From contig JBEWZL010000053.1 in the NCBI GenBank assembly GCA_045837725.1, forward strand, positions 1 to 64,000: a stretch of 64,000 bases of DNA, given 5' to 3'. Source of the stretch: Vermamoeba vermiformis. Lineage: Eukaryota. A model generated the notes under the pieces. That model made no database searches. It saw only the letters and a list, made by a program, of their open reading frames with translations, and had not been told where the DNA came from. Of this stretch, positions 1-20,306 are shown piece by piece (positions within the stretch are counted from its first letter, which is position 1; each line of letters starts with the position of its first letter). The translations under genes were made by a program, and so were the position numbers.

Positions 1-2052
1 TAACCTTTCTATTATTAATTTAGGTGCCCGTTAATAAATATTATGACGAAATGGGATGCAATAAATACAATTGATTGATAGGACACTTTTCAGTAATCAC
101 GACACGAGCTGTGGATATTCTACGAGATATTTAAATATTTAATTTTATATTTTAATATTTTATGTATTGTTTGATATAAAACGGCGACTTATTACAGAAT
201 GATTAATAATAACATCCCCTTCGTCCCAGATCCGCCAGCAATTTCGGTGCATACATTATTTTGTATACACAGATTATAATGTACACGAAAAAGGAGAACC
301 AATTAGCCAAGTAATTAACAATGTTTTATTCAAACAAAGTGGAGAATACAATGACGTTGGAAAAGAGATCGCTATTCCACGGAAGAACATGTGAGACTAC
401 TGGGGCATCTTTGTGTAGCTCGGATCCAGACTTTTCCGGCTTTTGTTATAGCCCATGCCTCGTAGATCACTTGGTCAAGCGCTGTTGCTGGCGCTAGCTG
501 AACCAACAGTCTTGCCTCTTCTACAGAGAGTCGTACGTACTTGCGGTTTTCAGCGTCGGTAACGCAAACTCTGATGCAACTGCAGGTAGGGTAATTTACT
601 GGGTTCCAGTCCATGTTCATTTGTGGTCGTGTTTTGCTGTTTGAAGTTAAAAAACTTATTTTTTTTTCACCGGTTATTTTGTTACCTTGTCGAAGCCTCG
701 ACAACCAGAGCTCTGTAGACCAAACCAATTAATTGTCAATGTAATTAACAGTGCTGTCTCGGAAACGGATTATCAGGTACTTTAATTCGTGACTGGCAGT
801 CTGACATACGGATGTCAATAAATATTTTTCATTTCAACCCTTCGTTTCTTGAATAATTCTTTTTATTAATGGATATCCCCCCCACCTAGCATCTTTCATA
901 GCGCGTAAGGCTTAGGACACTGACTTACAAGTACGAATAATTTTTTGTATTGTTTTGGATGCAGGTTTTATAGCACTCAAGTGACGCACTACACGGCATA
1001 AATTCAAGTGTAGCACGTTTCGAAATCAAACCTGGCTTGTCAACGCTCAGCTGTAGCCACATTCCTAAAAGTCCTGCAGAGAAATTTTCGGTACGTAAAA
1101 CCTTACATTTTCCAAACCTCTGAAGGGTTAGTTTAGGTCGTAACACGCGAGCTACGAGGTTTGCGAGGGTTTGAAAGCCAGTGCGCACCCGTGGGTTTGC
1201 CAGAGGGATGAGCAAACCCTCTGTTAAAACAACGTAAGTCAAGGAGTATGCCTTGTCACGAATATTACTAACAGCGTTAGCAGTGCACGGAATTAATGCA
1301 TTCATCAATTATTCTTGCCAAGGGCTAGCACAGAGGAACGAGACTCCTGTTTGTATACACAATCGGTGGAATGTATATGACAAACAAATTTGTATACACA
1401 ATTTACAAAATGCACATGTTATTTAAAGTAAATGTCCCTGTTGTACTGTAGACTCTCCTCAGTGTTTCCTTTATTATTCTCGACTGATAAATGCTTAAAA
1501 ATAGGAGCAAATTCCGTTCCCAAGTCCTAAAGATGCAAGAGCACTTGTATATATACATAACAGATTTCGTATACACATTCACTCTTTTTTAATGCGGACT
1601 GGGTAACAACTGGAAGGAAGAAGAATAACACAATTTAAGTATATTAATAGGCATTTCCTAAAAATGCTTTGAAAAAAGCGTTCATGGAACCATAAGCAAT
1701 CAAACTTTAAATTTTGTATATACTTTTTTATTTTGTATACGCATTACACGGCAAGTTTCATTGTTTAATGTCACAAAAGCCTATAAACCTAAGCCAGCCT
1801 ACTCCTAAGGCTATATATAATTCTAAGTAAATTAAAGTTAAACTTGTCTCTTAGTGTTTTTATTTTGGCATGCTTTTCAATGCAAAAGTGACTGCAAAAA
1901 GACAAAAAAAGTCAAAATTTAACAAAAAAGGGGTTTAACTGGACTTTAAACTCTATAACCCTTAAATTTCTATAACCCAGAAGCCTACTATAATTTGTTT
2001 ATTTTAGTAACTTTTCAAGGCTAGCCCTATATGGCCAGGCCATTTTACATAT

Positions 2053-2074
2053 GGCAAGATCCACGAGTCTCAGC
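2053..2074 (+). repeat. Left terminal inverted repeat
   Basis: GGCAAGATCCACGAGTCTCAGC, exact reverse complement of 7258-7279. Confidence 0.95.
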
Positions 2075-2267
2075 TTATGAGAAATTGTAATATGTAAGCA
2101 GAACAAGAAGAAAACTGTAAAAGTTTAACAAAAATAAAGGCGTTCGATGATGAAACTGCAAAATTTAAAGATAAAAGGAGTAGTAAAATAAATTCTAAGA
2201 ATACCAATTTATTTAGTTAGTAGAGCAAAAACCTTCGAGCAAGGATAAAAAGATCTACAAAAAGTGC

Positions 2268-4993
2268 TTAGTCGTCTTCTTCTGTTAAAGCAAATCGACG
2301 GACTGGTGACATTTGCCCGTCTTCTGCATCACCAACATCAGCTTCTTCAACATTGTTGTTGTTGAATTTCGGCATTGGAGTGGTTCCTCGGACACTTGGA
2401 GTAACAGGCAACAAAGGCTCATCAAAGGCGTCTGGCAAAAAAGCTTTGGCTGGAGTGCTTGGCTGTTGGGCTGTCCCCTCAGGTGCAGCAAGAGAGGACA
2501 CAGCAAGGGCAGTAGAGACAGCTAGAGCAGCCTGGGGGTCATCGACAGAGCGGCTCAAAACTCGGCAAACGTGGGCTTTAATCTTGTTCTTCAGTGGGCC
2601 GTTGGTGATGTAGCCCACGTAGCTGCGGCTTGATAGGGCAGCAGCAATGTAACCGGTCTGTAAATGAGTTAGTAAAGCAAGGCGAAGGATACAACACGAC
2701 ATACACCAGATAAGTTGTTGAGCTCCAAAATAACACCATCAGCAGGAGTGTACACAGAGAAGATGAAGCACAGAACCTGGACTGGAGGTTGGCGGGGAAA
2801 CAATGCCGTTGAGGTCAAACTGAGCTTTTCACGAAGCATCTCGTAAGCAGGAGGTGTTTTAAAGACACCATGCTGCCAATTTGGGTTGTAATGCCCATGC
2901 TTGACCCAGTTACCTTCATTGGTATTAAAACATGGAGCATTGCCAGCACGAAGGCGCAAGAAGTAGAAATCCCACGTGGTTTGAACAGGATTAATGCCAG
3001 TGAAGGACTTAACAGGAGGGGCGCTCAGGCATGCAGTGTACTTGAACTCGAAAACCAAAGGATTCTGTGGTTGAGAAAGCGAGTGAAAAATTGAATACGC
3101 TGCGCTTGGATCCGCAAGAATGACCAGGCGAGAAGAAAGGTGCATGCATTTCAGAATTGGCTGCAGCAAGGAGTTGCGGAATTGCTCAGCATTTTCAAGC
3201 ACCAAGAAAATAAGATCTGCTCTGAGCTGCAGCTGAATATGAGAGAAGGAGTTCACCACTCGGAAATGCGGGTCAAAATGCTTTTCAACATTAGCCACCA
3301 AGTCTTTGCGGAAGGGAACATCCTCGTCCACGTCACTCTCAGATTCATCATTGCCAGGCGCAGTAATGACAGCGCCTTCACTATCGTCCTTCTTCTGTGA
3401 AACGTAATGAGAAAAGAAAAACGCGCGGCGCGTTTTTGGTGACTTACATTTGTACGTGACTTTTTTTGTGGTGGTTCTGCATCTGCAGGTGCAGCAGGGT
3501 CGCGGTCTCGTTTTCGGGATTCCTTTTCTGGAACAGGGAGATCAACTGGCAAGCGTTCTTTAAGAACCTTATCTGCACCTTTCGTGTTCTTTGAGGCAGT
3601 AGGTGACTTCTACAAGGAGTCAGATTGGTGGGGGCAAAAACGCGTGGCGTGTTTTTAAGGGTACTTACAGGTACTGTTTTTGTTGTTGCAACAGCTTTGA
3701 CTTTCACGCTTTTCACAGCAACAGAGGCGTTCAAATCTTTGATGAAGGCTTGCATTGCAGCACTCTCCAAATCATTTGCCGTAGCGGTCTCCAATGCTTC
3801 AAAAGTTCCAGCTTGGATTGCTTCCACATAGTCTTCCAGAAGATCCGCATTGGGTGCCTGCTGCCTGACATAATCAACCATTGAAACAATGTGTGCTTGA
3901 CGAGCAACGATGCCAGAAAACTCTGAAAATGATTAGATGGTAAAAACGTGCCACGCGTTTTTGCTTACCAGTCAAACTTGCTTTGTTGTCGTTTTTGATA
4001 GCCCACGACACAAATTCCTCAATGGCAGCAAGTTTGTACATATCGTCCAACTTCCAGAATGCTTTGTTCTCAGTGATGCAAGATAGCTTCATGGGGTTTT
4101 TGTAGCCGTACTTCAGATGCAACTCCTTGAGTTTCTTGTAAACAGCGTTTTGGGCAATGTCTTCCGCTCCTTTGTTTGTTAGCTTGTTGTATGCGGTGTA
4201 CAACTTCTTGGCCAAGTCCAACGCGAGCCCATCACGTTTTCCCTGTCGTCCTCGTTAGAAAGAATTATTGGCCTTCAAATATTGCTACTTACAGACAACT
4301 GGTGAATGCGTGCCCAGTTTACCGTGACCTTTTTTCCCTTCGTTTTTGTTCGTACACCAGGCATTTCAAGGTACCGAATTAGCTTCTGCAGGTACTCGAA
4401 CCAAGGGGCTTTGGCAGTACCATCTTGCGCTTTAGCATTATTTGCACCAGCAAGAACCTCGCGTTCTTCTTCAGTCATGGTAACTCCGTTGAGAGAAGCC
4501 TTCAAAATGAGGCATGGCCACTCTTCAATATCACTACAAAAAGTTAGCTAGAGCAAAAACGCGTCACGCGTTTTTACTCACTGGCTTTGTAAAACTTCAA
4601 AACGGTGATTTCCACCAAGAATTAGGTACTCGGGCTTCTTATCTTTGTTAATTTTGTCTTCTTCGGGAAGCTCTTGTAACAGAAAAGGCTCGCTATAATC
4701 CAAGCCTTTGTCGAAGTTTCCTCCACCCATCTTTATTATTTGTTGCTCGATGGTTTTTTTGCCTTCTTCCGTCACCAAACGGTAGTTTCCTGAATGGAGG
4801 TTAGTAAAAACGCGCCACGCGTTTTTGCTCCCGTACCTCGTTTTGTCATTTGAGACAGCAGAACATTGCGTGGCTTATCGTACTTCAGCCATTTCTGGAG
4901 CAGTTCTATGGGCTTGTCTATGTTGACAAGCTGTTGTTCCTCGTCTGTATCCTCCTGTTTCTTGGAGGTATTTCTTTTATTTGTGTTGCTCAT
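2268..4993 (-). CDS. Transposon accessory protein: N-terminal ParB/Srx-like domain plus C-terminal degenerate beta-class N4/N6 DNA methyltransferase fold (8 exons)
   Basis: Removing introns 4790-4836, 4534-4581, 4243-4292, 3923-3968, 3610-3668, 3395-3447 and 2658-2704 (all GT-AG) gives one continuous frame. ParB-like: GNYRLVTEEGKKTIEQQI...YLILGGNHRFEVLQSHDIEEWPCLIL. MTase-like: ADLIFLV...FPRQPPVQVLCFIFSVYTPADGVILELNNLSGTGYIAAALSSRSYVGY. Confidence 0.75.
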
Positions 4994-5718
4994 GTTTGAA
5001 GGGAATGAATAATGACCGCATAAAAATTTTTTTTGTTCGACGGTTTGACCAAACGTTGACCGTTGACCAAACGTTGACCAGGTCCAAAAGGAAAAACGCG
5101 CCACGCGTTTTTGCCATTCATATGGTTAATCACAACAACAATGGACACACCTCTTCTTGATGTCGTTCTTGCTCTACCTCCGCACGAAATTGAGCCTGCT
5201 ATTTTGGACGTTTTGCAGCATCATCGCATCACTCTGCACTTGCGTGTTCTCAAGCATGCTTCTGTCCAGCATGCTCTGCTATCAAATTACGGTAGATCCC
5301 TGCGGATTGCGGCAAGCAGTGAACGCACTTCAGGGTTCTTCCGTGGATCTTTGTCCTCAATGCTTCACGCTTCGATTGACAAGGCAGCAGTTGCTTCATT
5401 GCTTAATGTATCACCAAGTAGCGTTTCTCGTGCGCTTTCCATTTCAAATGAACGCTATCACAATGGGTTAATGACTGGCATTCACAACAAGTTTGCTTCC
5501 CCCACCAAGTACAAAGTTAGTCGACTTCCCGTGGCCACCTCCATTGTGACTGATTGGATAATTTCACACTGTCGCCCTTCTGCAAACTCGGCAAATGTTG
5601 TTCGCAATCGCAATGCTGATGGCACATGGTCTTATGAAATAATGCACTACCGCAATGAATCAATTGCAGAGCTGTTCACCAAGTACAAGGCAGGTACCAA
5701 AAACGCGTGACGCGTTTT
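3417..5718. repeat. Seven dispersed copies of the 21-bp palindrome AAAAACGCG-NNN-CGCGTTTTT
   Basis: Copies at 3417-3437, 3636-3656, 3942-3962, 4555-4575, 4806-4826, 5092-5112 and 5699-5718, each with 0-1 mismatch. Six lie in introns and one in the divergent promoter. Confidence 0.95.
4994..5140. promoter_or_regulatory. Bidirectional promoter of the transposon genes, with TTGACCAAACGTTGACC direct repeats and one palindrome copy
   Basis: 147 bp between divergent ATGs, tandem GTTGACC(AAAC) repeats at about 5044-5080, palindrome at 5092-5112. Confidence 0.55.
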
Positions 5719-7179
5719 CTAATACCCTTCCTTCAGGTGCAACATCAAGCAGATGCTGTTGGCAAATCTACGTTCTATTCACTTGTGCCCAAATGTGTTT
5801 ATCTTCAGCCCTACTATTCTGGCCTCTGCCCAACATGTGCATCTGATAAACATTGGCAAATGATGCTTAATCGAAACAGGCGCTCTTGGCATGCCGACTG
5901 CCACTGCCAGTGCACCTACTGCACAGTTTGCAACCATGCTCTGTCATGCCCTGCTGATTGTGTTTGCAAAGGTGATGAGTGTCCTATTGAAATGTCAAAC
6001 ATTCCACAACAATGGATTGTTCCTCAGGCCAGCAAGGCTCTGCGCAATGACCGTGACAAGCATGCCCCAAATCAAATGGTACATGTATGGCAGCAAGGCA
6101 CGCGCCGCCAGTTCATGGAGAATTGCAGTCTTGTTGCTGAAAGGTGCACTGATCACAAGCTTCATGTTTCTTGGCAAAAGCAAGTTATTTCAACACTTAA
6201 GAAAAAGCTTCCTTGGAACACTGTAATGATGCGCTGGGATTTCTTGATGAACTATTCCCATGTTAGCTCAGTTGAAGTGGGCAATGCTTTCTATGGGCGC
6301 CGCCAGTCTACTGTTCTAATTGCCACTGTCTGGTATCATGGACCTGACAGTACGCCAGAATCCCCAAAAATCACCAAAACCTACCATGCATTTGTCAGCC
6401 CTTACCTGTCCCATTCTTCTTTGGTTTTTCAGAAAGCATTTGCTGCACTACTTCCACAATTGGATTTGCACACAGATGTTGTCAACTGCATCATTCTCTC
6501 CGATGGTGGCATGCAGCATTTTAAAAACAGAATCTCAATGCATTGGGGAACAACTGTCTTCAACAAGTTCAACATCCGCTTACGTTGGATAATTGACCCT
6601 GCTTACCATGGCAAGGGTGAATGTGATGGCCGTGGTGCTAAGCTGAAAAAGAAAGCTAAAATTCATGTTCTCAAGGAAGATGGTTTCCTTGATACTCCAG
6701 AACAGCTAGCCAATTATTGGAATACAGTGCCAGGTGGCACTTCTTCGTTTCTCAACATAGACTGGGAGGACACAGAACAGGATGTGCAGACGATAAATGG
6801 CATTAAAGCCTGCTATGACTTCTGCTTCTCACGCAATGAAACTCAGTTGTACATGAGGAAATGGCCTTGTGTGTGTGCCGACTGCCTTGACTTTAACTTT
6901 GGCAGTTGCAAGCGAGGTGCTCAAGTAGGAGAATGGCTGTTTCGTCAGACAAAGCCAACCAATGTAAATCACCCAAAAGGACTCAACCCTCCTGTTGTTG
7001 TGGAAGAAGAAGTCGAACACTGTGAGGTTGAGAAAATTGTTGGTAAACGTATGTTCAAAGACAAAGTACAGTATCAGATTAAGTGGCTTGGTTTCACCGA
7101 AGAGTACAATGAATGGAAGTACGAAGATGAAATGGATTGCGAAGACCTTGTTCTTGCTTTTGAAAACGATCACAAATAA
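5141..7179 (+). CDS. Sola2-like DDD transposase with Cys-rich region and C-terminal chromodomain (2 exons)
   Basis: GKSTFYSLVP, CPTC/Cys cluster, catalytic Asp codons at about 6238 (WDF), 6502 (SDG) and 6625 (CDG), CxCxxC motif, chromodomain EVEKIVGKR..KVQYQIKWLGF.EEYNEWKYEDEMDC. One intron at about 5690-5736. Confidence 0.85.
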
Positions 7180-7257
7180 AAATGCAACCCTTTTATTTTT
7201 GTACAATAACAGCAATTTCAACATAAAAATAAATTCTTGTAAATATTGGCGGTTTTG

Positions 7258-7279
7258 GCTGAGACTCGTGGATCTTGCC
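7258..7279 (-). repeat. Right terminal inverted repeat
   Basis: GCTGAGACTCGTGGATCTTGCC followed by ATAT. Confidence 0.95.
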
Positions 7280-7299
7280 ATATATGAATAATCAAAAAC

Positions 7300-9096
7300 A
7301 TGACACAATCAGCAGAAAACCAAAGGAGGTTTTTAGGGCATTCAACCCCACTGATGATACTAAAGGTAACTTAAATGATATTGATTCTTATAAAATTAAT
7401 CCAAAAAAACTCAATCAATAGCTATATAAACTAATCTGCTTACTTGTAGTCTCAATCAAGCAGTGAAAGGCCTTTGCTGAGAAAGTCTACAAGCAGACTG
7501 GTGAAAGAATCCAACAAAAAGCCACCCAGAATATTCATTGCCATGAAAAGAAGTACAATGTGTGAGTGTTTCTTCCTGGTGAGATCATGTGAGTGGATGT
7601 AGGCAAACAGTCAAAATTGAAGAAAAAACGGGAAGTAAAGAAGGCAATAGTTGTAGTGATACTTACCAATAACTACTATCTCATCGAATTTTGGTGAAGG
7701 AGATCAGCAAGGAAAGCAAAAAGAGTTTGGCACGAACAACTTGAGTTGTATTTCAAGAATGTCACATAGAACTTTGTTGGCATCCAAAAATATTTTTGAA
7801 TTAACTTCATCGACAACTACTTCAAATCTTTTTTTTACATCCTTGTTCACTTGATTTTTTAAGTCTACTAATTTATCTATTCCAGGCAAAACTTCATCCA
7901 GCTCACCAAGTTGCCGAAAGGTCTTGTAAGCATCATCACTCATTAAGCCTTCCATTTTGGCTAGTAGCAATTGTAAACAACTATTTTAAGCTTATTATCT
8001 ATACCTTTTTACAATACATTTTGCCTCTCTTGCTTGGCAACGTCAGTTGGGGTGCTGCATTAGTTAACATCCATTGCCGAACAGCAGCTAATATTGGATG
8101 AATAGCTTTGCAAATACACGTTGCTACCTCTTCAATTGATAATTGTTCATTAACAAGCAAATGGTCAAGCATCTGCAGCAGTCCCTCAATCCTCTTCATT
8201 CAGAACCATTTGGTGGCTACAAGTCCAGCTGGAACTCTATGCCTACCTGGCAAGTTTCTATTTTGTTGCTGTTGCATGCTGAATAATAAAATTCAACTGA
8301 TTTACAAAACATAATTAAATTTTATTTTTACCAAATTAGTACATGACTATCACGCTACATCATGAACTGCACAAACTTAATTAAATATAGTACCTTGCTC
8401 TTTCTTTTTCTCTTTTCACTGCAAACCAGAATTGGACACGACATACCTTGGATTTGATACAATAACTCCATTTGAAATGACCTTGGCGAAGCTCCAAGTA
8501 ATATGGATTGTTGTTTGTGTCTACTAATGTTTTGTTACTGATGTCCTTTCCGAACACGGTAGTGATAAGTTGTGTAGAATTGAAAACTCCACGGACACGT
8601 GTACTGCTTTGTGTTTGGTTTCCTTTGAGCCTCTCCTTCAAAACAGTCCATTTTAACTCTGACGCATCGAAATTGGCAAACAACAGATTTGCAAAGGCAA
8701 CGCTGGGCAACTAATAAATTAATTAATTTATTCAATTAATAATATGTATTTCACTTACCCAAAACTGAAACCTTGCTCGTGGCCTTCCATTGCATCTTTT
8801 TCCCTATTTGGCCTTCGATATAAGCATGAGCCTCATCCGCCACCAAACTTGAGCCAGCGTCGTTATTCACCAAATTTTCCAAAATAGTGCTCTCATGCAT
8901 TATGTGTGCTGTCCTAGGAGTGAGGCGACGACGTGAAACAGCCCGCAATGCTCGTCTTAGTTCTTCATCTTCAGTTCGGCGACGGATGGGACATTGGAAA
9001 CCCCTACGCAGCTCTGGGGTGGCTCTTCTAGCAGGCAAAACTCGTGCACCAGATGAGACGCTGAGTTGCACTAAAGTAGCTTCAGTTGAAGACATG
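7300..9096 (-). pseudogene. Degenerate multi-exon gene, possibly an older transposase-like gene interrupted by the Sola2-like insertion
   Basis: Fragmented minus-strand ORFs (8751-9155, 8381-8710, 7999-8199, 7704-7970) with stops. The segment MSDDAYKTFRQLGELDEVLPGIDKLVDLKNQVN resembles the 'S..Y..lR...lP' N-terminal motif of Transib/RAG/P-type transposases. Part of the region appears CpG-poor by eye. Confidence 0.3.
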
Positions 9097-9241
9097 ATAG
9101 CAATTTTAATATTTAATAAGACAATTTGTTGTTGATAATTCAATACATACCTCATTGCTAGCGTTCATATTTATGTTGTTGTAAAACTTGGGTTATATCA
9201 CGTTGCGAAGGCGATTTTTCAGCATTCACTGAAAACCCGTT

Positions 9242-10680
9242 CTATTGAACTGCCGTAGAAAAGATGTTCGCTATAATCCAACATCCCAGCATCAGTGCGA
9301 GGGTTGTAACGCGCGGGCGTGATAAGTACCACGGTCGCTCGAGGTTTGTTAATAGCCACGCTACACCGGCACGAGCGATGAGAGTCTTCCAGTCCATGCT
9401 TATTGTGAGCTCACCTACAGAAAAGGCGAATGCACAAAAAGTTGCAGCTGTAATCCATTGCAATCGTTGCTCACCGACCAACCGATCGCGGAATAACTTG
9501 AACCAGAACCAGAGCATGTAAAAGCGACTGCACATTGCTACAATATCAAGGTACAGCGACGCATTCGAGGCAGCTAAAACGACTTCGACAAGCACAGCGA
9601 GAGGGAGGTGGATTCGAAGTGTTGGTCGTGCAGGTACCATCGAGATAAAATTCGACACACGTTTGATGGAGTAGGGCAGATATCGTGATAAAGAAAGGAC
9701 ACCACGCATGACCGACGAATGGGGAGCGAGACTAATCACTGCCGACAGTATCAACGGTGAGGCCGCCAGAAACACTGCTTCGAGCGTGGCCGAAGTGCGC
9801 GGAAATATGCCTGAGAAGAGTTAATTGACTGAAAATGGAGTGCAGGAGTGGAGCGTACCAGCAACGAGAGCTCTCTTTTGTTTGACTCTATAGTGCAATA
9901 TCTTTAACACCGCACCTTCGTTGTGTGAGACACATAACAGTGTGACATCGTCGCCCGCGTGCAGTTCTTGGCCTGGACACGTGTCGTCCAGAATCTTGCG
10001 CTGCACGAGTACATCGCGCCGCGTGGAATCTTTCAAATGCACGTACAAATCATGCGTGCGCACCTGGCTGATATTGCCCTCGAATTTAAACAGCAAGCTG
10101 TTGGGAGGGTTAGATTAGTACAGGCGATCGCAAGTCTATGTCATACGTATTCTCCTCTTCAAGTGGTGTAGTCAATGCTATTCGGTTCGTAAATCGATAT
10201 TTGTAATCAATAAGGATCATATTGCGCTCGCGAGCAAAGAACGCATCGAGGTAACGTTCTTTCCAAGGCTGATCGAGTAACTGCGCGGATTAATTTGTTA
10301 TTTTCAATAAAAAAAACAACGTACCTCCATTGTCAATCTTCTATATTGTCCAAACGCCCGGCTTAACACCGCGTGTGGGGCAGTAGGAAATGCATCCCTT
10401 GGTTGAAATTAGTTTTGACCAAACAGGAGGAGACGTAATACACGTACTTTATATATAAATCTCGCCATAATGATTTAGCGATACGTGACCATTTTTTAGA
10501 TACGCTCTCGCACCGTGCCAACGAAAAATGCGACAGATGAAGCAAGATTAGGCACAACAGTTCCTACGAGCATCAAAAAAATATTAAAAAAATTATGATA
10601 GGCTCCAACAAAGCCAAACATGACCCGTGCAGCACCGTCACGTATCAACAAAAATAAATTACCTCAGGTAGGGCGTTCAT
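9242..10680 (-). CDS. F-box protein with hydrophobic C-terminus (multi-exon; downstream exons tentatively joined)
   Basis: Spliced N-terminus MNALPE|ELLCLILLHLSHFSLARCESVSKKWSRIAKSLWRDLY is an F-box motif. Downstream ORFs 9821-10096 and 9242-9775 lie on the same strand. Confidence 0.55.
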
Positions 10681-10892
10681 TCAAGCAAGACTCCGTTTTG
10701 TATAACGGTTATCGCCGATACATTTATAAACGAAATTATTAATATTTTATTGCCCCCTCGTGAAGGACAGAAGCGAACTTGACGAAAATTATTTTTTATT
10801 TTGTTAAACCTTCCTTTTCAGAACACAACAGGGTAACCCTTTAGGTTCTGCCACCAAACCCTAATAACCCTTTTATTTTGCTTTCCCGTAGA

Positions 10893-11955
10893 ATGGAACC
10901 AACAACATTATCACCCGAAGCATTGGCTAAAGTAAGTCGAATCTGTCACCTCTAACAAATAGAGTGTCAAGATTTGTTCAATTTTACGGCCATAATTTAA
11001 TATTGCCGCAGATCGAAGCCAACCGTCAAGAAGCGCTCGCTAAGAAGCAACAGGCCGAGGAACGGAAGAAAGCGCAGATCGAAGCCCAGATCGAAACCAA
11101 TCGTCAAGAAGCGCTCGCTAAGAAGCAACAGGCTGAGGAACGGAAGAAAGCGCATATAAGGGTAATTACACCATATTACTCAACTTGATAAGCGCCGTTG
11201 TCTAATTCCCGGAAAAGTCATTGATTGCTGAACTTCTCTTCCTGTTTAGTTGCAAGAAGGCGTCGTGCACCTTAAACAAGTAGTGAGACCACAAGAACAA
11301 ATTCAATTGTACGCTGATATCGCTGAAGGTGCCAAAACATACGCGGCAAAGCAAGCGAGGAACCGGAAGAGCAATTTCAAAAAGATCTTGACTTACAACT
11401 GGGAGCGAGACGCAGCCAAAGTTCCCGACAGCTTCGAATTCTTCAGCACACTGGCGTGTAAAGAAGCGAGTACCGTATGCAGCACGATCCCACCAGCGTT
11501 CAAGCCCAATTACGTCACTGCCTTTTGCTACCCCCAGAAAGACGGGCGATTAAGAGGTAGGCGCTTCATAAATTCTCACACCACTTACAAAATAACGCAG
11601 GCCACGTGGACAAGGTGCTTGGTTGGGTTGTCTTATTCTCGCTTGGGTGCACGTGTAAGTTTTGGATAAAAGGCCCACAGATGCAACGGAAACAAAGTAA
11701 GCCAAATTTACAACTGTCAATATTAACATTAATTATAATAATTTTCTAGCAATCGACTTTGAGTCGGGAGACGTGCTTGTATTCAATGGCGGTACCGAAT
11801 ACGGCATCCAGCATGGAATCGATACCATCGTGCCCCAATCATGTCCTGAACACTTGAATAAGGACTTGGCGCACTGTAGAGTTAGTCTTCAATTTCGTCA
11901 AACCTTGCGAAATGATATTGTCCGTAAATTCGGGTACCCGAAAAAGAAGCACTAG
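10893..11955 (+). CDS. AlkB-like 2OG-Fe(II) dioxygenase with duplicated N-terminal RPA-binding-like helix
   Basis: Spliced YP..DGRLRGHVD (HxD), VVLFSLGC, ESGDVLVFNG, HGI, RVSLQFRQ. N-terminal LSPEALAKIEANRQEALAKKQQ, repeated. Confidence 0.8.
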
Positions 11956-12183
11956 ATGCGTGGTCCACCACTCACTTGTAAATCGTTGTAAATTAGATTC
12001 ATAGTTTTGATGGTGCCAGAAATGTTATTCGCTCGCAATCGTGCGTACACAAAACGATCACGTGCCTCGAGTTAAAAAGTCTGAAAGTCGGTCCAAATCA
12101 TCAAGCAGAAATATCAGCGCTTTCATTGCATTTTACAACAAATAGATAGTAAGCAACAACTTATTGTCTAAAAATCGACGATA

Positions 12184-15100
12184 ATGTCTAAACGTAAGTT
12201 ACTTACCCACCTTTGAGCCTAAGCGGACCTCACGGATCGATCTTGAAAACTTTTTCGGCTTTGCAATTTCATTCTTGCTAATTTTAATGCCTTACTACAG
12301 CGTACGTGGTTAGATTTAGAGTTAATTATCAAACGAACCCGGGCCAAAATGTCCTCGTAGTTGGAAATGACAAATCTCTTGGCGGATGGCAGCATCAATC
12401 AGGCCTTCACTTGTCTTACAGCGCTGGAAATAATTGGGAAGCTGAAATTCAATTATCAGATGTACCAAATGGTGTATTGGAATACAAGTACGTGCTTGTT
12501 GATGAGGGAACAGGATGCGTCTTTTGGGAAGCCGGCAGCAATCGAGTCGTCAACTTGAAGGAAGAACCTACTGGCGTAGTTGATATGCGCGACACCTGGA
12601 AGGTAAATTTAATTTTGCAATTTTAATCACGAAAATTTTTCTCGTGGATCCACACCGCAATTTTACACCTACAAATGCAATTTAACAAAGTTTTCGATAG
12701 TGACTCGCTTTCTGATAATTTTTGAAATTTTTAGTCCACTCATTTGCCCGAACTAGCCTACTTGCACACGACTTTGTTCCGAGATGTCATTTTCGGCCGC
12801 GACGTCGAGACTAAGAAGCGCTTTGATGGTAAGACTATTCTGTTAATTACTGCGCACATTCTAATAGTACCTTAGCTGCTTCTGTCAAGAGCTCATTAGT
12901 TGTGCGCTTCAAGATCACTTCGGGAATCACTTCTCCAAAACACAAAATCGCTGTCGTTGGCAGCTCTGCAGCCCTTGGAAGGTATTATACATTTCCAGTG
13001 CTTTTACAGTATACTAATGTCAACTATTCAGCTGGGATGTGTACAAGGGTGTAACTTTGCAATACACTTATCCCGACTTTGAGGCGGATGTAATCGTTGA
13101 TGTGCGCGATTTGCCTTTGGAGTACGTAGCACAATGCATATTAGCAATTGCAAATCCGTCCTAACACATTTGAAATTAGATACAAATACGTCGTGGTCGA
13201 TGAACACAACAACGTCGTAGAATGGGAAAACGGCGGCAACAGAGTGATCGAATTGGACCCCAAAATTGTTCGCGTCTTCTTTGACGATCAGGGTAGAAAT
13301 TACACTGTTAAAACGACCGATATATTCAGAGTACGTGCCCAGTTTGAAAACATTAGCGCTGTTTTGTCTGACCCTTTGTTTACAGCGAGGCAATTACAAC
13401 TGGCGTGCCATGGGTGTCGCCATTCCTGTATTCTCACTACGTACCCGCCAGTCCATGGGTGTCGGTGAGTTCTTGGACTTGAAGCCCTTCGCTGACTTGT
13501 GTAACAAGGTACGTTAAACATGTGGTTCGCGAGGTATTATTTGACTGCTAACTTTCTGCTCTACAGTTCGGCTCTCGTCTTATTCAGATCTTGCCCATCA
13601 ATGACACGTCGTGCCGTCTTAACTGGCGCGATTCCTACCCTTACAGCGCTTTGTCAGTCTTCGCGTTGCACCCCATCTACTTGCGCATCAAGAACTTGAC
13701 CGATGACGCAACTATTCTCAAAGAAGCTGAAGCCGCTGCTCAAAAACTCAATGCATTGCACCAGATTGACTACGAGGCCGTGTACAACACCAAGATCAAC
13801 CTCGCCAAGCGCATCTACTTGGCTCAAAAGAAGAACTTTGCTGCTTCGCTGCCCGCCCAAGACTTCATCAAGGAGAACGACGAGTGGTTGACTCCTTACG
13901 CCGTATTCTCGCATTTGCGCGACGTTTACAAGACAAGCAACTGGGCCAAGTGGGACGCCAAGCACAAGAACTTGAGCACTGTTGAGATCAAGAAACTCGC
14001 TGAAGAGTTCCAGGACGAAGTTAGCTTCAACTACTTCTTACAGTACCATTTGCACGTGCAATTGAAGGAGGCCACTGCCTATGCCGAGAGCTTGAAGATC
14101 GGAATTAAGGGTGATTTGCCTATTGGTGTCAACCCTGCTAGCACTGACACTTGGACCAATCCCAACCTCTTCCGCATGCAAATGTCCACTGGTGCTCCTC
14201 CCGATCAATTCTGTAAGTAATATCGTGCACTAAAGTCGTCACCAATCGACTAATGCGCTGACAGCTGAGGACGGTCAAAACTGGGGCTTCCCTACTTACA
14301 ACTGGGCTGAGATGGCCAAAGACAACTACGCTTGGTGGCGTGCTCGTTTGCAATCGATGGCCAAGTACTTCCACGCCTACAGAATCGATCACATTCTCGG
14401 ATTCTTCCGCATTTGGGAGATCCCCCGCAGTTCTTTGAGCGGTCTCATGGGCTACTTCAATCCCAGCACTCCTGTGCACCGACACGAACTCGAGCGCAAT
14501 GGTTTGTGGGACATTCAGCGATTTACCGAGCCCTACGTTCGATGGGGTCTGTTGGAATACTACTTTGGCTCTGATGTTAGTAGAACAGCCACTACAGTGA
14601 CGGCACGATTAACACTACCCTACAGGCCAAATACGTCTCTGACACGTACTTCTATGTTTACGGCTGGGATCGCTTCCAGTTCAAAACCGAATACAACACT
14701 GAACGCAAGGTTTTGGACCACATCAAGTCACTCCCTGGTATGTTCTGGCGATTAAACAATTTAATTGCATCGTATTAATGCGGTCGCAGATGACTCCGAT
14801 GGTGCTCGCAAGTGGCGTCAAAAGCTTCAAAAGGGTCTCGTAGCCTTGCAACAAAATGTCATCTTCTTGCGCTACCCCGACAACCCTGACATGGAATTCA
14901 TTCCTCGTGTCAACTTGCACCGCACAATTTCATTCCAAGAACTCGACGGCGATACTCAACGCTCTCTTTGGAAGCTGTACGTCTCTTACTACTTTGAGCG
15001 CCAAGAGTCGCTGTGGTACAACATCGGCATGAACCGCTTGCCCGTCATCAAGAACGCCACCCGTATGTTGGTGTGCGGTGAAGATTTGGGCATGGTTCCC

Positions 15101-15659
15101 AAGTGTGTCGAGCCTGTCATGAATGACTTGTCTATTCTCGGATTGCGCGTTCAACGGTAAGTCGTTGCCCTTAACTTCCGGTCCTTCAAGTGCTAATGTC
15201 TCCTTCAGTATGCCAAGCGACCCTGAAGAGGAGTTCGGACACCCCGCGCACTACGGCTACATGACAGTCAACACGACGAGCTCGCACGACACATCGAGTT
15301 TGCGTGCCTGGTGGGAAGAAGATCGCGGCAAGTCACAACACTTCTGGAACACCGTGCTCGGTCAACAAGGTGCTGCCCCTTGGTTCTGCGAGGACTGGCT
15401 CGTTGAAATGATTCTCCGCCAACACTTGCACAGCCCGTCAATGTGGGCTATCTTCCCCTTGCAAGACTTGTTCGCTCTTCGTCACGACTTGCGCGTTCAA
15501 GACCCCAACAGCGAGCGTGTCAACGTCCCTGCCAATCCCAAGCACTACTGGCGCTATCGCATGCACGTCTCCATCGAGGACTTGCTTGCTAACGAACACT
15601 TCATTGGTCACGTGAAGAGTTTGGTGCGCGAGAGTGGTCGTGCTCACGAATACATTTAA
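12184..15659 (+). CDS. DPE2: 4-alpha-glucanotransferase / disproportionating enzyme 2 (two CBM20 + GH77)
   Basis: CBM20 (VRFRVNYQT.PGQ...LGGW, YKYV, WE.G.NR) twice. GH77 motifs DSYPYSALSVFALHPIY, KGDLPIGV, GAPPD, NWGFPTYNW, RIDHILGFFRIW, CGEDLG, SSHDTS, YWRYRMH. Confidence 0.95.
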
Positions 15660-15711
15660 TAGCGAAACTAAATAAAGATGCTCGCGAGCATTCAATAACA
15701 TTACGCCTTTA

Positions 15712-18700
15712 TTACGGCATTGAAACATTTACAAGCCGGATCTTGGTCGGTTTTTGGACCTCTTTGCCTACTTTCATCCATTTAATTAGCTTCTCCCATC
15801 GCAAAATGACTGCTCTTATGGCGAACAAATAAGCGTTGAATTTTATCATCTCTGGGTGCAGTGTGTGCAGCTTCTTGTTGTTGTAGTTGAATTCGCTCGT
15901 CTGCATGTGCCGCCGTTGAACACGGGACAGAATTTTTTGCATTTTTCTGGCTGCTCTACGGTGCCCGGGATGCAATTGATTTGTCTTCAAGAATTTCCTG
16001 AACAAATGAGCTTGGATCTGCGCTAGTTCGCCAATGTCCGAGAGATCTGATTTTAGAGGCTCAAACAACTCGTGCAAAATGTTGTCTGAAAACCCTCCTC
16101 GACAGATCTCGCGAGCAGCAACGAGAAAGAATGAAATGTACGCTGTGTGCTTCGTTACTTTTTTCAACATCTTCCTTCGTCTTCGGGCCAAAATTAGCTC
16201 TGACTTGGCCTCTTTGAGCAACCTGTTTGATATTTCGTAAGCACCAACTTAGATCTTTAATTAGCTATGGAGCCCTACCTTGCTTGAGGCTGCACAGCTG
16301 AAGTGACTTCTTTGATTTTCGTGCACATCTCGTTAAACAGATCACCCCGCAACTCATCAACACGCGTCAGTGCCTGCATGGCATCAGCACTCGCTTTAAC
16401 AGTGGTGAGGAAACTCGATTGCAATTTCTTGTACGAGAGCACTGGAAAGGGTAGTGCAGCGAGAATACCCACAATGACACCTGTGACTGTTAGAACGAAC
16501 CCCAACAGCACGCGTTGAACTTACCAGCCAGCACGTTACCCGCACGATAGACTGCAGGCCCCCAGTTGAAGAAGTCAGGATTGGGATAGGCAGGATAGGC
16601 CACGACAAGAAACGCAGGAACAGCGACAGACCTACGAGAGTTAGCGAAAAGAGTTGTCTAATATGCTTAAACTTACATCGAGTAGGACTTCTGATAGAGC
16701 GCACTGTACTTGAAGTAGATGGTGATTGGTGCGAAGATTGCAGTCACAGCTAAAATGATCGCGAGTGGGTCTGCATAGGTAGCGATGATAATCGTCACCT
16801 CGCCCACTGCCACACCAATAAATGTGCCGATAACTCGGTGAATGCCTCGCTTCAATGTCGCACCTAATGTCGGTGTTGTGACCATCACTAATGTCGTCAC
16901 TGACCACGCTTGCTTCGAGTTCGGCAGCACATCAGAAACTAATGAACCATTAGGACTTGTACAGGCCCATCATCTCGTGGTCGATTCTTACCATATATCG
17001 TTGCAATACCCACGGCTCCAGCAGCGATGGCAAGTCTGACAGGATAGCGATACATTTTGTTCTTCCAAATGGCTTTCCAGCTCTCAAAATATTCTTTGCG
17101 AGCCTTAATTGAACCTATGAATCGATTAATTCAGATTCTCGTGCTGTCAATTTCAATCATACCAATCGATTTGCACACGAGATAAATGTCCACAAACGGA
17201 TAAGCAATGACATGTGGCACCGCGTGGCCATAACGCCAAGACTTGTCTTTTTGAGTTGTTTCGTTGAACTTGTTCACGGCCTCTTCGACTTCTTGCAAAT
17301 GAGTCACGAGACCAATCAACTGCCACATGTACAAGTTCATCCGCGCTACCTTAGCCGTGGCAACCATCTTGAGTTCCTTTCTGTTCTCCTTGTCTTTGAT
17401 AATTTCCATGTACTGGCGTGAAATTAATTCGGAGATGTCGCCGATTTTGTGTTTAGTCGCGTGACCATCAGCAGGTTTCGGCAGGTAGGTGTCGATTAGA
17501 ATAGCATCAACTTCTTCAACATTCTGGCTCTTCTTTTGTCTCGGCGGCAAGTACGCGTGCAGCAGCGTGTCACGTGCGTCCTCAATGTGGGCATTGAACT
17601 ACAAGTAGTTAGAAATGACTCTCCAAACGATTGTTGCTTCACACTTACACGACTCGACAGCAAGTCAAAGAGCGGTGAAATCTTCGGAAATATGTCGTGC
17701 GTGGTGCTTCTAATGAATCCTTGACCGAGAGCCACTTGCATGGTGACTAAATGTCCGACCAACGTGTCTAATTTTTTGACCATTTCTTCTTCAGCCCGAT
17801 GTATGTCGCCGTGCACCCAGCGCTCTAATTTACTCTCTTCTAATATGGAATACAGCCATCGAATGTTTTTGATGAGTTTTCGCGACAGATCTACTAATTT
17901 TCGTTCGTCGTATTCTCGTTGAATATCAGCGTCTGAAATCATTTCTTTTTCTTTCGGTTTGATATGACCGTTAATACTGCTCTTCAATAGATCGTGTAAT
18001 TTCGGCACTGGGGTTTTTTCTTTCGGTTGTCTTGACAACTTGATCATCAGCGCAAACATTTTGTGACAGTTTTTCAACGTGTACGCGCATTCATCGGGCA
18101 ATTTAATCACCCATCGCGTCGGAAAAATTAACATTACGCACAAGCTGATGATGAATACTAGCGTGTCGCACACAAGGCATTGAACTGGTGTTGCGTAATA
18201 ATAATTGTATGCCTCGCCGTTAGAGACCTTCGGGTACAAAAATATATTGACCAAGTTCATTGCTGTAAATCTGAATGCTGTCACGTGCACTAATTTGGTG
18301 TCTGCGGCCATGTACAAGATGCCAATGATGAAGATCCAAAATAAAAATACACCCAAGCCAATCCACCGATTATCTTTTGTGACGGGATAAAATAACAGGC
18401 CAGGGATAATAGAAACCAATCCTAAACCAATCGGTCAGTATGAGCTGGATCCGATTCACAAATCCAAGTCCGCACCCACAACTAAATTAGGGAATCCAAA
18501 CAAAAACTTGATTATTATAATTACCTGAGGCTAAATAATATTTTGCAGATTGAATTGAGCCACCAAGACTGTGACTAGTTGATACCGAAATGCCGGTGAG
18601 CAAGATCAACAATATAGCCCATGATTTGTCGAGAACCACTTCTGTTCCAGGCACAAAAAAGAATAAAGATGCCATTAATATTGCCGCGGTGCCTCTAATT

Positions 18701-18964
18701 GACGTCTTCAAGCGGATGAGCGACACGGAGTACTTTCCGCAGGGCAGCTTGCTCTCTTGGCACAATCTGAAGGATAAAATAATTACTTTCCATTACAAAC
18801 TAAATTTTAATAACTACAGATCATTTTTTCGTTTTCTTGAATCAATTAATCGAGATCCAATCACTCAACTTCGGTTAAAAATAATCAACCGCTCGAAATT
18901 AATTAATTATTATTTATATACCCGTACGGGTTGCAAGCACTTACCTTTCCGCAAGCTTTGTCAT
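15712..18964 (-). CDS. FUSC/ALMT (aromatic acid exporter)-like multi-pass membrane protein
   Basis: Two hydrophobic blocks, with WSVTTLVMVTTPTLGATLKRGIHRVIGTFIG and TRAVGVRSN/GVIVG..A.LPFP segments typical of FUSC-like repeats. Confidence 0.7.
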
Positions 18965-19194
18965 TTTAAAATTCTTCTTGCATCTAATACTAAACCAAAC
19001 TATGTACAATATTTACAAGTGGATCCTGCACTCCGACCAAGTACGGTACTGGTACTGGTGCTTCACTGACAATAAATTTTGAAATAAATTAAAATTCTGC
19101 GTGATACGTTGTGACTTCTCTCGTTCATGAAACATTCAATTGACAATTAACTTGACAACCTCCCAATTAGGATAAAAAAATCCGCTCTACCTCT

Positions 19195-20306
19195 TTATTT
19201 GGCGGGATGCATAGCAGAGTACACGTGATCGATTAAGAATCCAACGCCTTCAAATACCTGAAAAAATGATCAGAACTCACTCCTCCGCACCTGTGAAAAA
19301 TTACCTGATTTGCTTGTGCATCTGGATGACCAAATCCAGTAGTACTGATCACGTGATGCAGGCGATCTTCATGGACCTCACCAACTTTCTTTCTGATAGT
19401 CTTTGCACCAATTTGTTCGATTGCCTTTTCAAGATTTTCACGTGCTCCAACCGCGACAGTAATATGCGGCAAGCACTTCGCAGCCAACAAGCAGGCGGAG
19501 TGACTTACTCCGATAGGTTTCTTAAGACGGTTGAACTCATGGATGACCCTGACAATGCTCAAAGTTAGGTACATCCGCGAGCTAAAAATACTACCGAAGG
19601 CTTACCTCTCCACATGAGCATTAACAGACATATTAGGACCATCGTGCGTGTATGTACACAAGTTACTCAAAACACCATCACTGGTCACTGAAGTTAGAAT
19701 ATGGGGAGGATCCAACAATACGAACCAACGAACTTACCCTCCAGGAATGAGCACCGCATCGTAATTGTGCGCGGACAAATCGGTGATATCTGCCATCGTG
19801 CCTCCTTCGGCCAATCGAGCTGATTCAATCAACACGTGACGCTGATGTTCGATAGGAGTGTTGTCAAAGTGGTTCCACACCCAATGCTAAGTAACAAAGT
19901 CAGACGAAGAAAAATAGAGCAAATTAATTTTCAATCGTACTTGACGAGTGTTAGGAGCGTAAAAATTGAAGACAGTCCCGTGACGACTCAAGTGAATGAT
20001 CATGCCTGCTGTTTCAAGTGGATCCGAGCCATCTTTAGCACCGCATCCAGCTGAATTAAGGAATGATTATTATTATCTTTCATACAGCAATATTTGGCGA
20101 AAATTTTTCACTAAAAATCAAAAAATATCCTAGAAGACTTATTTCTTACCTAAGATGATAGCAACCTTTCTTTTTCTACCCCGAAAAACTTCTTTAGTCC
20201 CCGTGTAATTTCGGAAAGCAGATCCTGCGGCCAAAGACGGAGCGACAGCAGATGTCGTACCAGCCCTGTTTAAAATAGTGCACAATGTTTTTGTAAGGGA
20301 ATTCAT
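19195..20306 (-). CDS. ES1/ElbB/GATD3-like DJ-1/PfpI-superfamily protein, probably mitochondrial
   Basis: LIESARLAEGG..DITDLSAHNYDAVLIPGG, SNLCTY..DG.NMSVNAHVERVIHEF.RLKKPIG, basic N-terminal presequence. Confidence 0.8.

Follow-up and report, generated by a model that had tools for sequence, protein, structure and literature searches.

Why does one 21-bp CGCG palindrome recur in the short introns and the promoter of a transposon? The question is raised by positions 1 to 64,000 of contig JBEWZL010000053.1 of Vermamoeba vermiformis (assembly GCA_045837725.1), a stretch of 64 kb that is called the window below. It carries a DNA transposon that consists of two divergent genes only, 147 bp apart, one encoding a transposase and the other an accessory protein. 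A preliminary description, made from the sequence alone, had drawn attention to the palindrome. The reading that is preferred here, at a rough probability of 0.45, is that the palindrome is a DNA-level cis site for a dimeric protein, situated in the promoter and the promoter-proximal introns, and that it probably serves self-regulation of the element or anti-silencing.

The palindrome within the window

The motif has the form A5-CGCG-N3-CGCG-T5 (AAAAACGCGNNNCGCGTTTTT; arms AAAAACGCG-N3-CGCGTTTTT). When up to two mismatches were allowed, a pattern search matched it seven times in the window, at start positions 3417, 3636, 3942, 4555, 4806, 5092 and 5699, with the whole set lying within 3417-5719. 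All seven positions of the preliminary description were thereby recovered, where 0.01 matches were expected and a count of seven was reached in 0 of 100 shuffles. Four of the seven copies are perfect and three carry one mismatch each, namely a CpG-to-TpG transition at 3636 and at 3942, and a terminal T-to-C change in the last base at 5699. The spacers, in positional order CGG, TGG, CCA, TCA, CCA, CCA and TGA, had been described as varying; all seven nevertheless conform to Y-S-R, and the spacer variants are separated by transitions only. ACGCGT is present in 8 of the 14 half-sites, and 6/7 palindromes contain at least one. Further, a GC dinucleotide adjoins 5/7 palindromes on one side, which is 5′ or 3′ depending on the intron, and the orientation of this flank relative to transcription is mixed. 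A longer flank common to the copies of introns 1 and 2 (GAGC...ACTNAC) was considered as an extension of the motif and rejected, as it is made up of a branch point on one strand and a reverse-complement donor on the other.

Outside the element, the strict palindrome had no further match in the remaining 58.7 kb of the window, and neither the half-site AAAACGYG nor the CpG-decay-tolerant form A4-YRYR-N3-YRYR-T4 was found in these 58.7 kb of host DNA, which hold a few dozen genes. Consistently, the core ACGYG-N3-CRCGT gave no further match in the 64-kb window. To cover the host introns, short introns lying between open frames were sought heuristically, which returned 61 candidates, comprising ~50 of the host and 5/7 introns of the accessory gene. 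The host candidates measure 41-88 nt and have GTAAGT-type donors and CTAAC-type branch points; they carry 0 copies of the motif, in line with the earlier remark that it was not seen in host introns of the window.

Beyond the window, 2.9 million viral contigs contained one exact match to the motif, at 2747-2767 of a 63-kb phage contig (L005). There it forms a hairpin followed by T's, 3′ of a gene, and resembles an intrinsic terminator. This phage palindrome is taken to be unrelated to that of the transposon.

That the palindromes occupy only non-coding DNA, as had been described, is supported by the gene model, which places them in predicted introns and the promoter. The predicted frame model of the accessory gene (791-795 aa) likewise bears out that five of its seven introns carry the motif (introns 1, 2, 4, 5 and 6), introns 3 and 7 being without it. 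In detail, introns 1-3 share their codon positions with a metagenomic relative of the element (L001, see below), in which the transposase intron also has the same place; the exon 7/8 junction is confirmed by the intron-less homologue P0008; and introns 4-6 are based on frame logic and canonical splice signals only. For the transposase intron, the 43-nt form proposed earlier (GT 5694 to AG 5736) breaks the reading frame. The frame-keeping introns are GC-AG 5690-5736 (47 nt) and GT-AG 5694-5749/5752 (56/59 nt), and the palindrome lies inside each of them.

All six intron palindromes are placed between the donor hexamer and the branch point, and the intron sequence outside them is almost only splice signals. 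The earlier observation that the rest of each intron is unrelated therefore carries little weight, since nearly all of that rest consists of splice signals. The seventh copy stands in the promoter, and no AG occurs between it and the transposase ATG, as had been stated and as is seen in the sequence. A role in introns thus cannot cover the promoter copy.

Conservation of the arms and CpG decay in relatives

Relatives of the element were found by a metagenome scan with the transposase alignment, which gave four loci (L001-L004), while viral and prokaryote-genome scans gave none; further homologues include P0001 (89% identical) and P0007 (66% identical). L001 and L002 represent a single element, which, compared with the window element, is 75% and 52% identical in the two transposase exons, respectively, and 61-68% identical in the accessory exons, and which carries an in-frame stop and a truncated accessory gene. 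The strict palindrome is absent from all four relatives. The decay-tolerant form, in contrast, matched three times in L001 vs. 0.003 expected. The full matches are in the transposase intron and in accessory intron 1, and every difference between them and the palindrome is a CpG transition. In L001, accessory intron 1 is enlarged to ~330 nt, with 3-4 decayed copies of either orientation; intron 2 still has the left arm and the spacer, and the intergenic region retains a decayed copy after the same ACCAGG as in the window.

At 4-fold degenerate sites, the window element and L001 are identical in 65/162 positions (40%), which is near saturation. As the palindrome is still recognisable at homologous places despite such near-saturated neutral sites, its arms are indicated to be under constraint. 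The selective conservation of the arms that the preliminary description had proposed is hence upheld, on the basis of a diverged relative and not of spacer variation. Judging from these alignments, the arms were under selection during most of the divergence, and CpG deamination set in once the L001 lineage had died.

Other palindromes were seen in the relatives. At L001 3656-3676 (= L002 3843-3863), a perfect, different 9+3+9 palindrome, CGATATTTGG-A-CCAAATATCG, stands at the start of transposase exon 2, directly after the intron with the decayed CGCG palindrome and with no AG acceptor upstream. At L003 901-921 and L004 4571-4591, a perfect 21-nt palindrome lies inside the transposase coding sequence (K-S-C-Y-D-F codons), and this is taken to be a coincidence.

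The CpG contents were then compared. The observed/expected ratio is 1.16 in the host part of the window, 0.70 in the whole element and 0.61 when its palindromes are left out; the relatives L001-L004, with values of 0.16-0.30, have an excess of TpG/CpA. This CpG depletion indicates that the element family is targeted by cytosine methylation or an equivalent CpG-specific decay. Within the palindromes, 26 of the 28 arm CpGs are intact, and 27 of the element's 182 CpGs are located in palindromes, which make up 2.8% of its length.

Possible functions of the palindrome

In the preferred reading, A5-CGCG-YSR-CGCG-T5 would be recognised as a two-fold symmetric duplex by a dimeric DNA-binding protein. 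The bidirectional promoter would keep one copy, as would nearly all introns up to 1.7 kb away from it, because the gap from the 5′ splice site to the branch point would be the sole place where 21 fixed bases spare coding capacity. The binder would most likely be encoded by the element, with two candidates, namely the accessory protein of 791 aa and the transposase through its helix-turn-helix-like N-terminus. Binding would most likely serve to control the expression or the chromatin state of the element, and in particular, the CpG-rich centre of the element might be kept free of the cytosine methylation that erodes the family. The nearly complete set of arm CpGs in an otherwise CpG-depleted element, and the decay of the motif in relatives that have been silenced, would be indirect evidence for this.

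The position of all intron copies between donor and branch point is also expected of an RNA hairpin that regulates splicing, with a 9-bp stem and a 3-nt loop, an explanation considered unlikely. The stem would reduce the distance from the 5′ splice site to the branch point to 6-20 nt or, in intron 2, bury the 5′ splice site; splicing would then depend on unwinding (through temperature, a helicase or a bound protein), and the promoter copy would be a hairpin in the 5′-untranslated region. Folding predictions agree with this in part, as hairpins of a stability far above that of shuffled sequences were obtained, with z values of -3.7 for intron 2 (-17.8 kcal/mol), -3.2 for intron 6 and -3.5 for the transposase intron, and the intron 2 stem covers donor positions +3 to +6. 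Such stems are also specific to the element, because the longest perfect stem in the ~50 predicted host introns of the same length does not exceed 6 bp, except for one AT-only stem of 8. However, introns 4 and 5, at z -0.05 and -0.11, fold like shuffles, and for intron 1 the gain in stability is no more than moderate (z -1.6). Each of the three substitutions produces A.C, and not G.U, in the sense RNA, with no covariation in the seven copies. Moreover, the promoter copy is outside introns yet conserved in L001, the unit with its GC flank is found along as well as against the direction of transcription, and the several copies in one L001 intron would be senseless for a distance-setting stem.

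Recognition of the duplex would accommodate these observations better. The seven palindromes show no compensatory change, so that the arm sequence is kept and not pairing alone. The presence of both orientations and of several copies in L001 intron 1, that is, an orientation-free and dosage-like pattern, fits DNA sites. Taken together, arm conservation, GC orientation and the promoter copy would favour duplex recognition over an RNA stem, in what is a small sample. The DNA-level role suggested by the preliminary description thus gains from the promoter copy conserved in L001, from the mixed GC-flank orientation and from the two intron copies that fold like shuffles, while the predicted binder stands at the level of a lead.

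Seven identical 21-mers are beyond the reach of point mutation, which means that every reading requires a copying mechanism of some kind; origin and function are separate questions. If copying were all, the palindrome would be a functionless unit, spread either through paralogous introns (by intron transposition or an introner-like process within the element) or as a 23-25-bp unit pasted by gene conversion or a micro-mobile element, and persisting since it is harmless. Common descent of the introns is compatible with their being nearly all splice signals outside the palindrome, and copying would suit the asymmetric GC flank that is found in both orientations, the multiplication in L001 intron 1 and a join at 4580-4803 in a contig of DNA run X1, which adjoins two palindromes; introners are documented in many eukaryotes (PMC9860276). 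Yet a motif recognisable at homologous places after near-saturation is unexpected of a neutral passenger, and 0 copies were found in the 58.7 kb of host DNA or in its ~50 predicted introns. Further, the unit has no target duplication and no splice site inside it, the positions of introns 1-3 are common to L001, and the promoter copy is not an intron. A functionless copied unit is therefore held to be distinctly unlikely. Introner-like intron creation, which the preliminary description had offered as one origin, finds no support in that form, given a unit that accounts for 21 of 46-59 nt and leaves the splice signals outside, the missing target duplication, the old intron positions and the lack of copies in the ~50 predicted host introns of the window.

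The frequent ACGCGT (8/14 half-sites) and the copy located 29 nt upstream of the transposase ATG would also suit a host transcription factor. MBF and CAMTA are families with known consensus sites, and a factor of the MluI-box (MBF) or CGCG-box (CAMTA) type could bind the ACGCG(T/C) cores, so that the copies would act as promoter and intronic enhancer sites, e.g., for S-phase expression. However, the invariant A5/T5, the fixed 3-nt spacing and the Y-S-R centre exceed such short consensus sites, AAAACGYG occurs 0 times in the host DNA of the window, and 6/7 copies lie inside genes and not upstream of them. A host factor as the cause of the pattern is hence regarded as highly improbable.

As to the candidate binders from the element itself, the accessory protein gave language-model likenesses (Atlas) of 0.93 for exon 2 to ParB_N/DUF6551 clusters and of 0.88 for exon 7 to PF01555 N6/N4 methylases, both of which are leads only. 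ParB-N plus N6/N4 methylase is a known DNA-binding architecture of phages and bacteria, and the two exons may, as leads, point to its two halves. The idea of a ParB-domain protein in the preliminary description is thus backed by the exon 2 likeness but not by Pfam, PHROG or PDB, none of which gave a match. In detail, the accessory protein had no PHROG match, ParB_N was not matched by Pfam or PHROG at E up to 0.1-1, and PF01555 matched neither the window exons nor P0007-P0010 at E up to 1. Longer proteins homologous to exon 2 were looked for without success, and exhaustive HMMER identified only 4 relatives of the accessory protein among 1.84 billion representatives, to which a profile word-search added none. 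The methylase-like domain may be inactive, if the fold is related at all. For eukaryotes, a review on adenine methylases (PMC4738411) names ParB-HTH-fused (helix-turn-helix) methylases of some chlorophytes and chytrids, although of a different methylase clade; in bdelloid rotifers, as part of PMC8885841 describes, a bacterial N4-cytosine methylase acts on transposons.

A stronger version of the accessory-protein case would be that the transposon took over a phage-type ParB-N/methylase-like protein together with its parS-like palindromes, now concealed in introns, on which a clamp loads, spreads over the promoter-proximal 2.3 kb and shields the element from methylation, or tethers or marks excised copies. 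This is considered very unlikely; if true, it would represent a ParB-type clamp system working on eukaryotic chromatin.

The other candidate, the transposase, has a model with a predicted local distance difference test (pLDDT) score of 50, and its core shows, at low confidence, an RNase-H-like order of strands and helices. The fold search gave weak matches to PIWI, EndoV and TnsB (template modelling score, TM, 0.11-0.19), and Foldseek matched the chromodomain to HP1/CBX chromodomains at 37-47% identity; of the matches of this model, the chromodomain alone is trustworthy. A likeness of the transposase to Zisupton/KDZ, which we had presumed, was not confirmed, as Pfam gave Chromo only and no 8-bp duplication was seen by eye. 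Zisupton/KDZ transposons have an 8-bp target duplication, as passages of PMC12730594 state.

Several points weigh against recognition of the palindrome by a dimeric protein of the element. L001 and L002 are one element, so that a single independent relative is behind the conservation, and L003/L004 (46% identity) contain no trace of the palindrome, strict or decay-tolerant. Four of the six intron copies form predicted RNA hairpins of high stability precisely in the interval from the 5′ splice site to the branch point, and stem-loops in this interval have known effects on yeast splicing. The palindrome is absent from the termini of the element, which means that it is not a transposase end-binding site. 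On the protein side, the accessory exons gave no Pfam match, no PDB match was obtained by single-exon sequence or family profile, neither the catalytic nor the cofactor-binding motif of methylases was seen by eye in the homologue alignment, and the AlphaFold model of P0008 (pLDDT 44) is unusable.

Layout of the element and comparison with known systems

The features of the element are listed in Table 1. Its inverted repeat measures 31 nt (2044-2074/7258-7288) and is 94% complementary. A contig of DNA run X1 continues into unlike sequence after 7283, the depth of the element is ~2-3x that of the right flank, and no target-site duplication was recognised by eye on the 8-bp flanks at 2049/7283. 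Parts of the element are present in water and wastewater metagenomes. The tandem repeat of TTGACCAAACGTTGACC has no alignable counterpart in L001, and it is possibly a second cis element of the bidirectional promoter.

Table 1. Coordinates of the transposon, its genes, introns and cis elements in the window
Feature	Position	Strand	Basis or remark
DNA transposon, ~5.2 kb, multi-copy	2049..7283		inverted repeat, X1 contig end, depth
Left terminal inverted repeat	2049..2074	+	outer end placed by symmetry with right end
Right terminal inverted repeat	7258..7283	-	end at 7283 from loose end in X1
Accessory gene, 8 exons, 791-795 aa	2268..4993	-	frame joining on removing seven GT-AG segments of 46-59 nt
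Intron 1, 47 nt, perfect palindrome 4806-4826	4790..4836	-	donor at same codon in L001
Intron 2, 48 nt, perfect palindrome 4555-4575	4534..4581	-	predicted stem reaches into 5′ splice site
Intron 3, 50 nt, without palindrome	4243..4292	-	alternative gene model; junction HQLS/GKRDG common to L001
Intron 4, 46 nt, palindrome 3942-3962 (one CpG transition)	3923..3968	-	frame logic
Intron 5, 59 nt, palindrome 3636-3656 (one CpG transition)	3610..3668	-	frame logic
Intron 6, 53 nt, perfect palindrome 3417-3437	3395..3447	-	frame logic
Intron 7, 47 nt, without palindrome	2658..2704	-	absent from intron-less homologue P0008
Two exact tandem copies of TTGACCAAACGTTGACC (four TTGACC hexamers)	5045..5079	+	intergenic, just upstream of promoter palindrome
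Palindrome, intergenic/promoter	5092..5112		perfect; 29 nt upstream of transposase ATG
Transposase gene, two exons, ~660 aa	5141..7179	+	RNase-H-like core (weak), HP1-type chromodomain
Transposase intron, palindrome 5699-5719	5690..5752	+	GC-AG 5690-5736 or GT-AG 5694-5749/5752
Chromodomain	7024..7167	+	Pfam PF00385, E 4.2e-09

One X1 contig joins 4580 to 4803, whereby 222 nt (accessory exon 2) are skipped and the flanking palindromes are brought together. With 27 letters on its shorter side, this join may come from a copy with a deletion, or else be an artefact of assembly or alignment at the near-complementary repeats. In the left flank (1-2048), contig depth is 2-4x that of the right flank, and loose ends in X1 occur at 1992/1994. 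The element seems to adjoin or lie inside another repeat, and such a repeat-flanked site would fit chromodomain-guided insertion into repeat-rich chromatin.

Host Pfam matches in the window are GH77 glucanotransferase, EGF_CA, LRR and kinase, and the window contains no Rfam family. These host matches, and the presence of parts of the element in water and wastewater metagenomes, suggest that the host is free-living and a microbial eukaryote. Of three RNA runs labelled as the same species, 48, 73 and 84 reads aligned to window 1-20000, nearly all of them 95-99% alike. These reads cluster at 14.7-16 kb, with no read and no splice joint on the element, and, coming from a diverged strain, they are uninformative on its splicing or expression. 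At 14700-16000, every RNA read differs from the window at fixed positions, which indicates that the transcriptomes stem from a diverged lineage of the species in their label. Also in host DNA, two 71-nt direct repeats (11009-11157; 94% identical, 78 nt apart) look like an in-frame duplication in a predicted charged, coiled-coil-like coding stretch.

The palindrome was compared with several known systems. Stem-loops in yeast introns resemble it in having a stable stem in the same interval. However, the yeast cases shorten long introns, whereas the introns here are near-minimal, so that a stem should hinder, and the arms are conserved in sequence. If the role were nevertheless at the RNA level, the transposon would gate all its introns with one hairpin.

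Introners, as described in parts of PMC9860276 and PMC3609843, likewise place near-identical sequence in several short spliceosomal introns. In the present element, the shared part comprises 21 (at most 25) of 46-59 nt and includes no splice site, the flanks are not duplicated, the splice signals differ between introns, host introns of the window have none, and the intron positions are old. Consistently, no copies in unrelated host genes (within the window), no intron-making unit and no recent gain were found.

The internal arrangement can further be set beside the 12-bp TnpA motifs of En/Spm and the internal enhancer/operator of phage Mu, where a protein of the element binds repeated, partly inverted motifs that overlap the promoter. 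Those motifs are subterminal or form one block, and they couple expression, methylation state and transposition. In contrast, the sites here are distributed among introns along 2.3 kb, with none at the termini.

ParB-parS is similar in that several palindromes are clustered in and next to a gene whose protein is, by Atlas leads, ParB-N-like in exon 2 and PF01555-like in exons 7-8. parS is a site of 16 bp, whereas the element's palindrome has 21 bp and an odd centre and shows no apparent resemblance to it in sequence. In addition, the element, with its two genes, has no ParA partner gene, its host is eukaryotic and its genes are spliced. If the binder were the ParB-like/methylase-like accessory protein, a bacterial or phage DNA-binding module would have been refitted by a eukaryotic selfish element.

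The closest resemblance is to VANC21 of Arabidopsis VANDAL21, which, as passages of PMC5735166 describe, binds a short motif that clusters in introns and in intergenic and terminal non-coding DNA of its element, and removes methylation; transposon-borne epigenetic modifiers in general are reviewed in PMC12730594, as its passages show. Like the present element, VANDAL21 (YAGTATTAY motifs, Mutator-like; in the same passages of PMC5735166) is a DNA transposon with a non-transposase accessory gene and a motif nearly confined to the element and enriched in its own introns and intergenic DNA, the copies multiply within introns of related elements, and the element family is a target of cytosine methylation. 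The two differ in that the motif here is a 21-bp palindrome, itself CpG-rich, with one copy per intron vs. tandem arrays of the same orientation. Pfam, without a direct comparison with VANC sequences, gave no family, VANC included, for any accessory exon, and binding and hypomethylation are putative here. A few plant systems are known in which transposons have cis motifs for their own accessory proteins; a conserved, CpG-dense palindrome with a single copy in almost all introns of a compact element is a layout that differs from them, and if the accessory protein were its binder, it would constitute a second, unrelated case of sequence-specific anti-silencing. The seven near-identical sites, two proteins that might bind them and, in dead relatives, a visible signature of decay through methylation offer an experimental handle on it.

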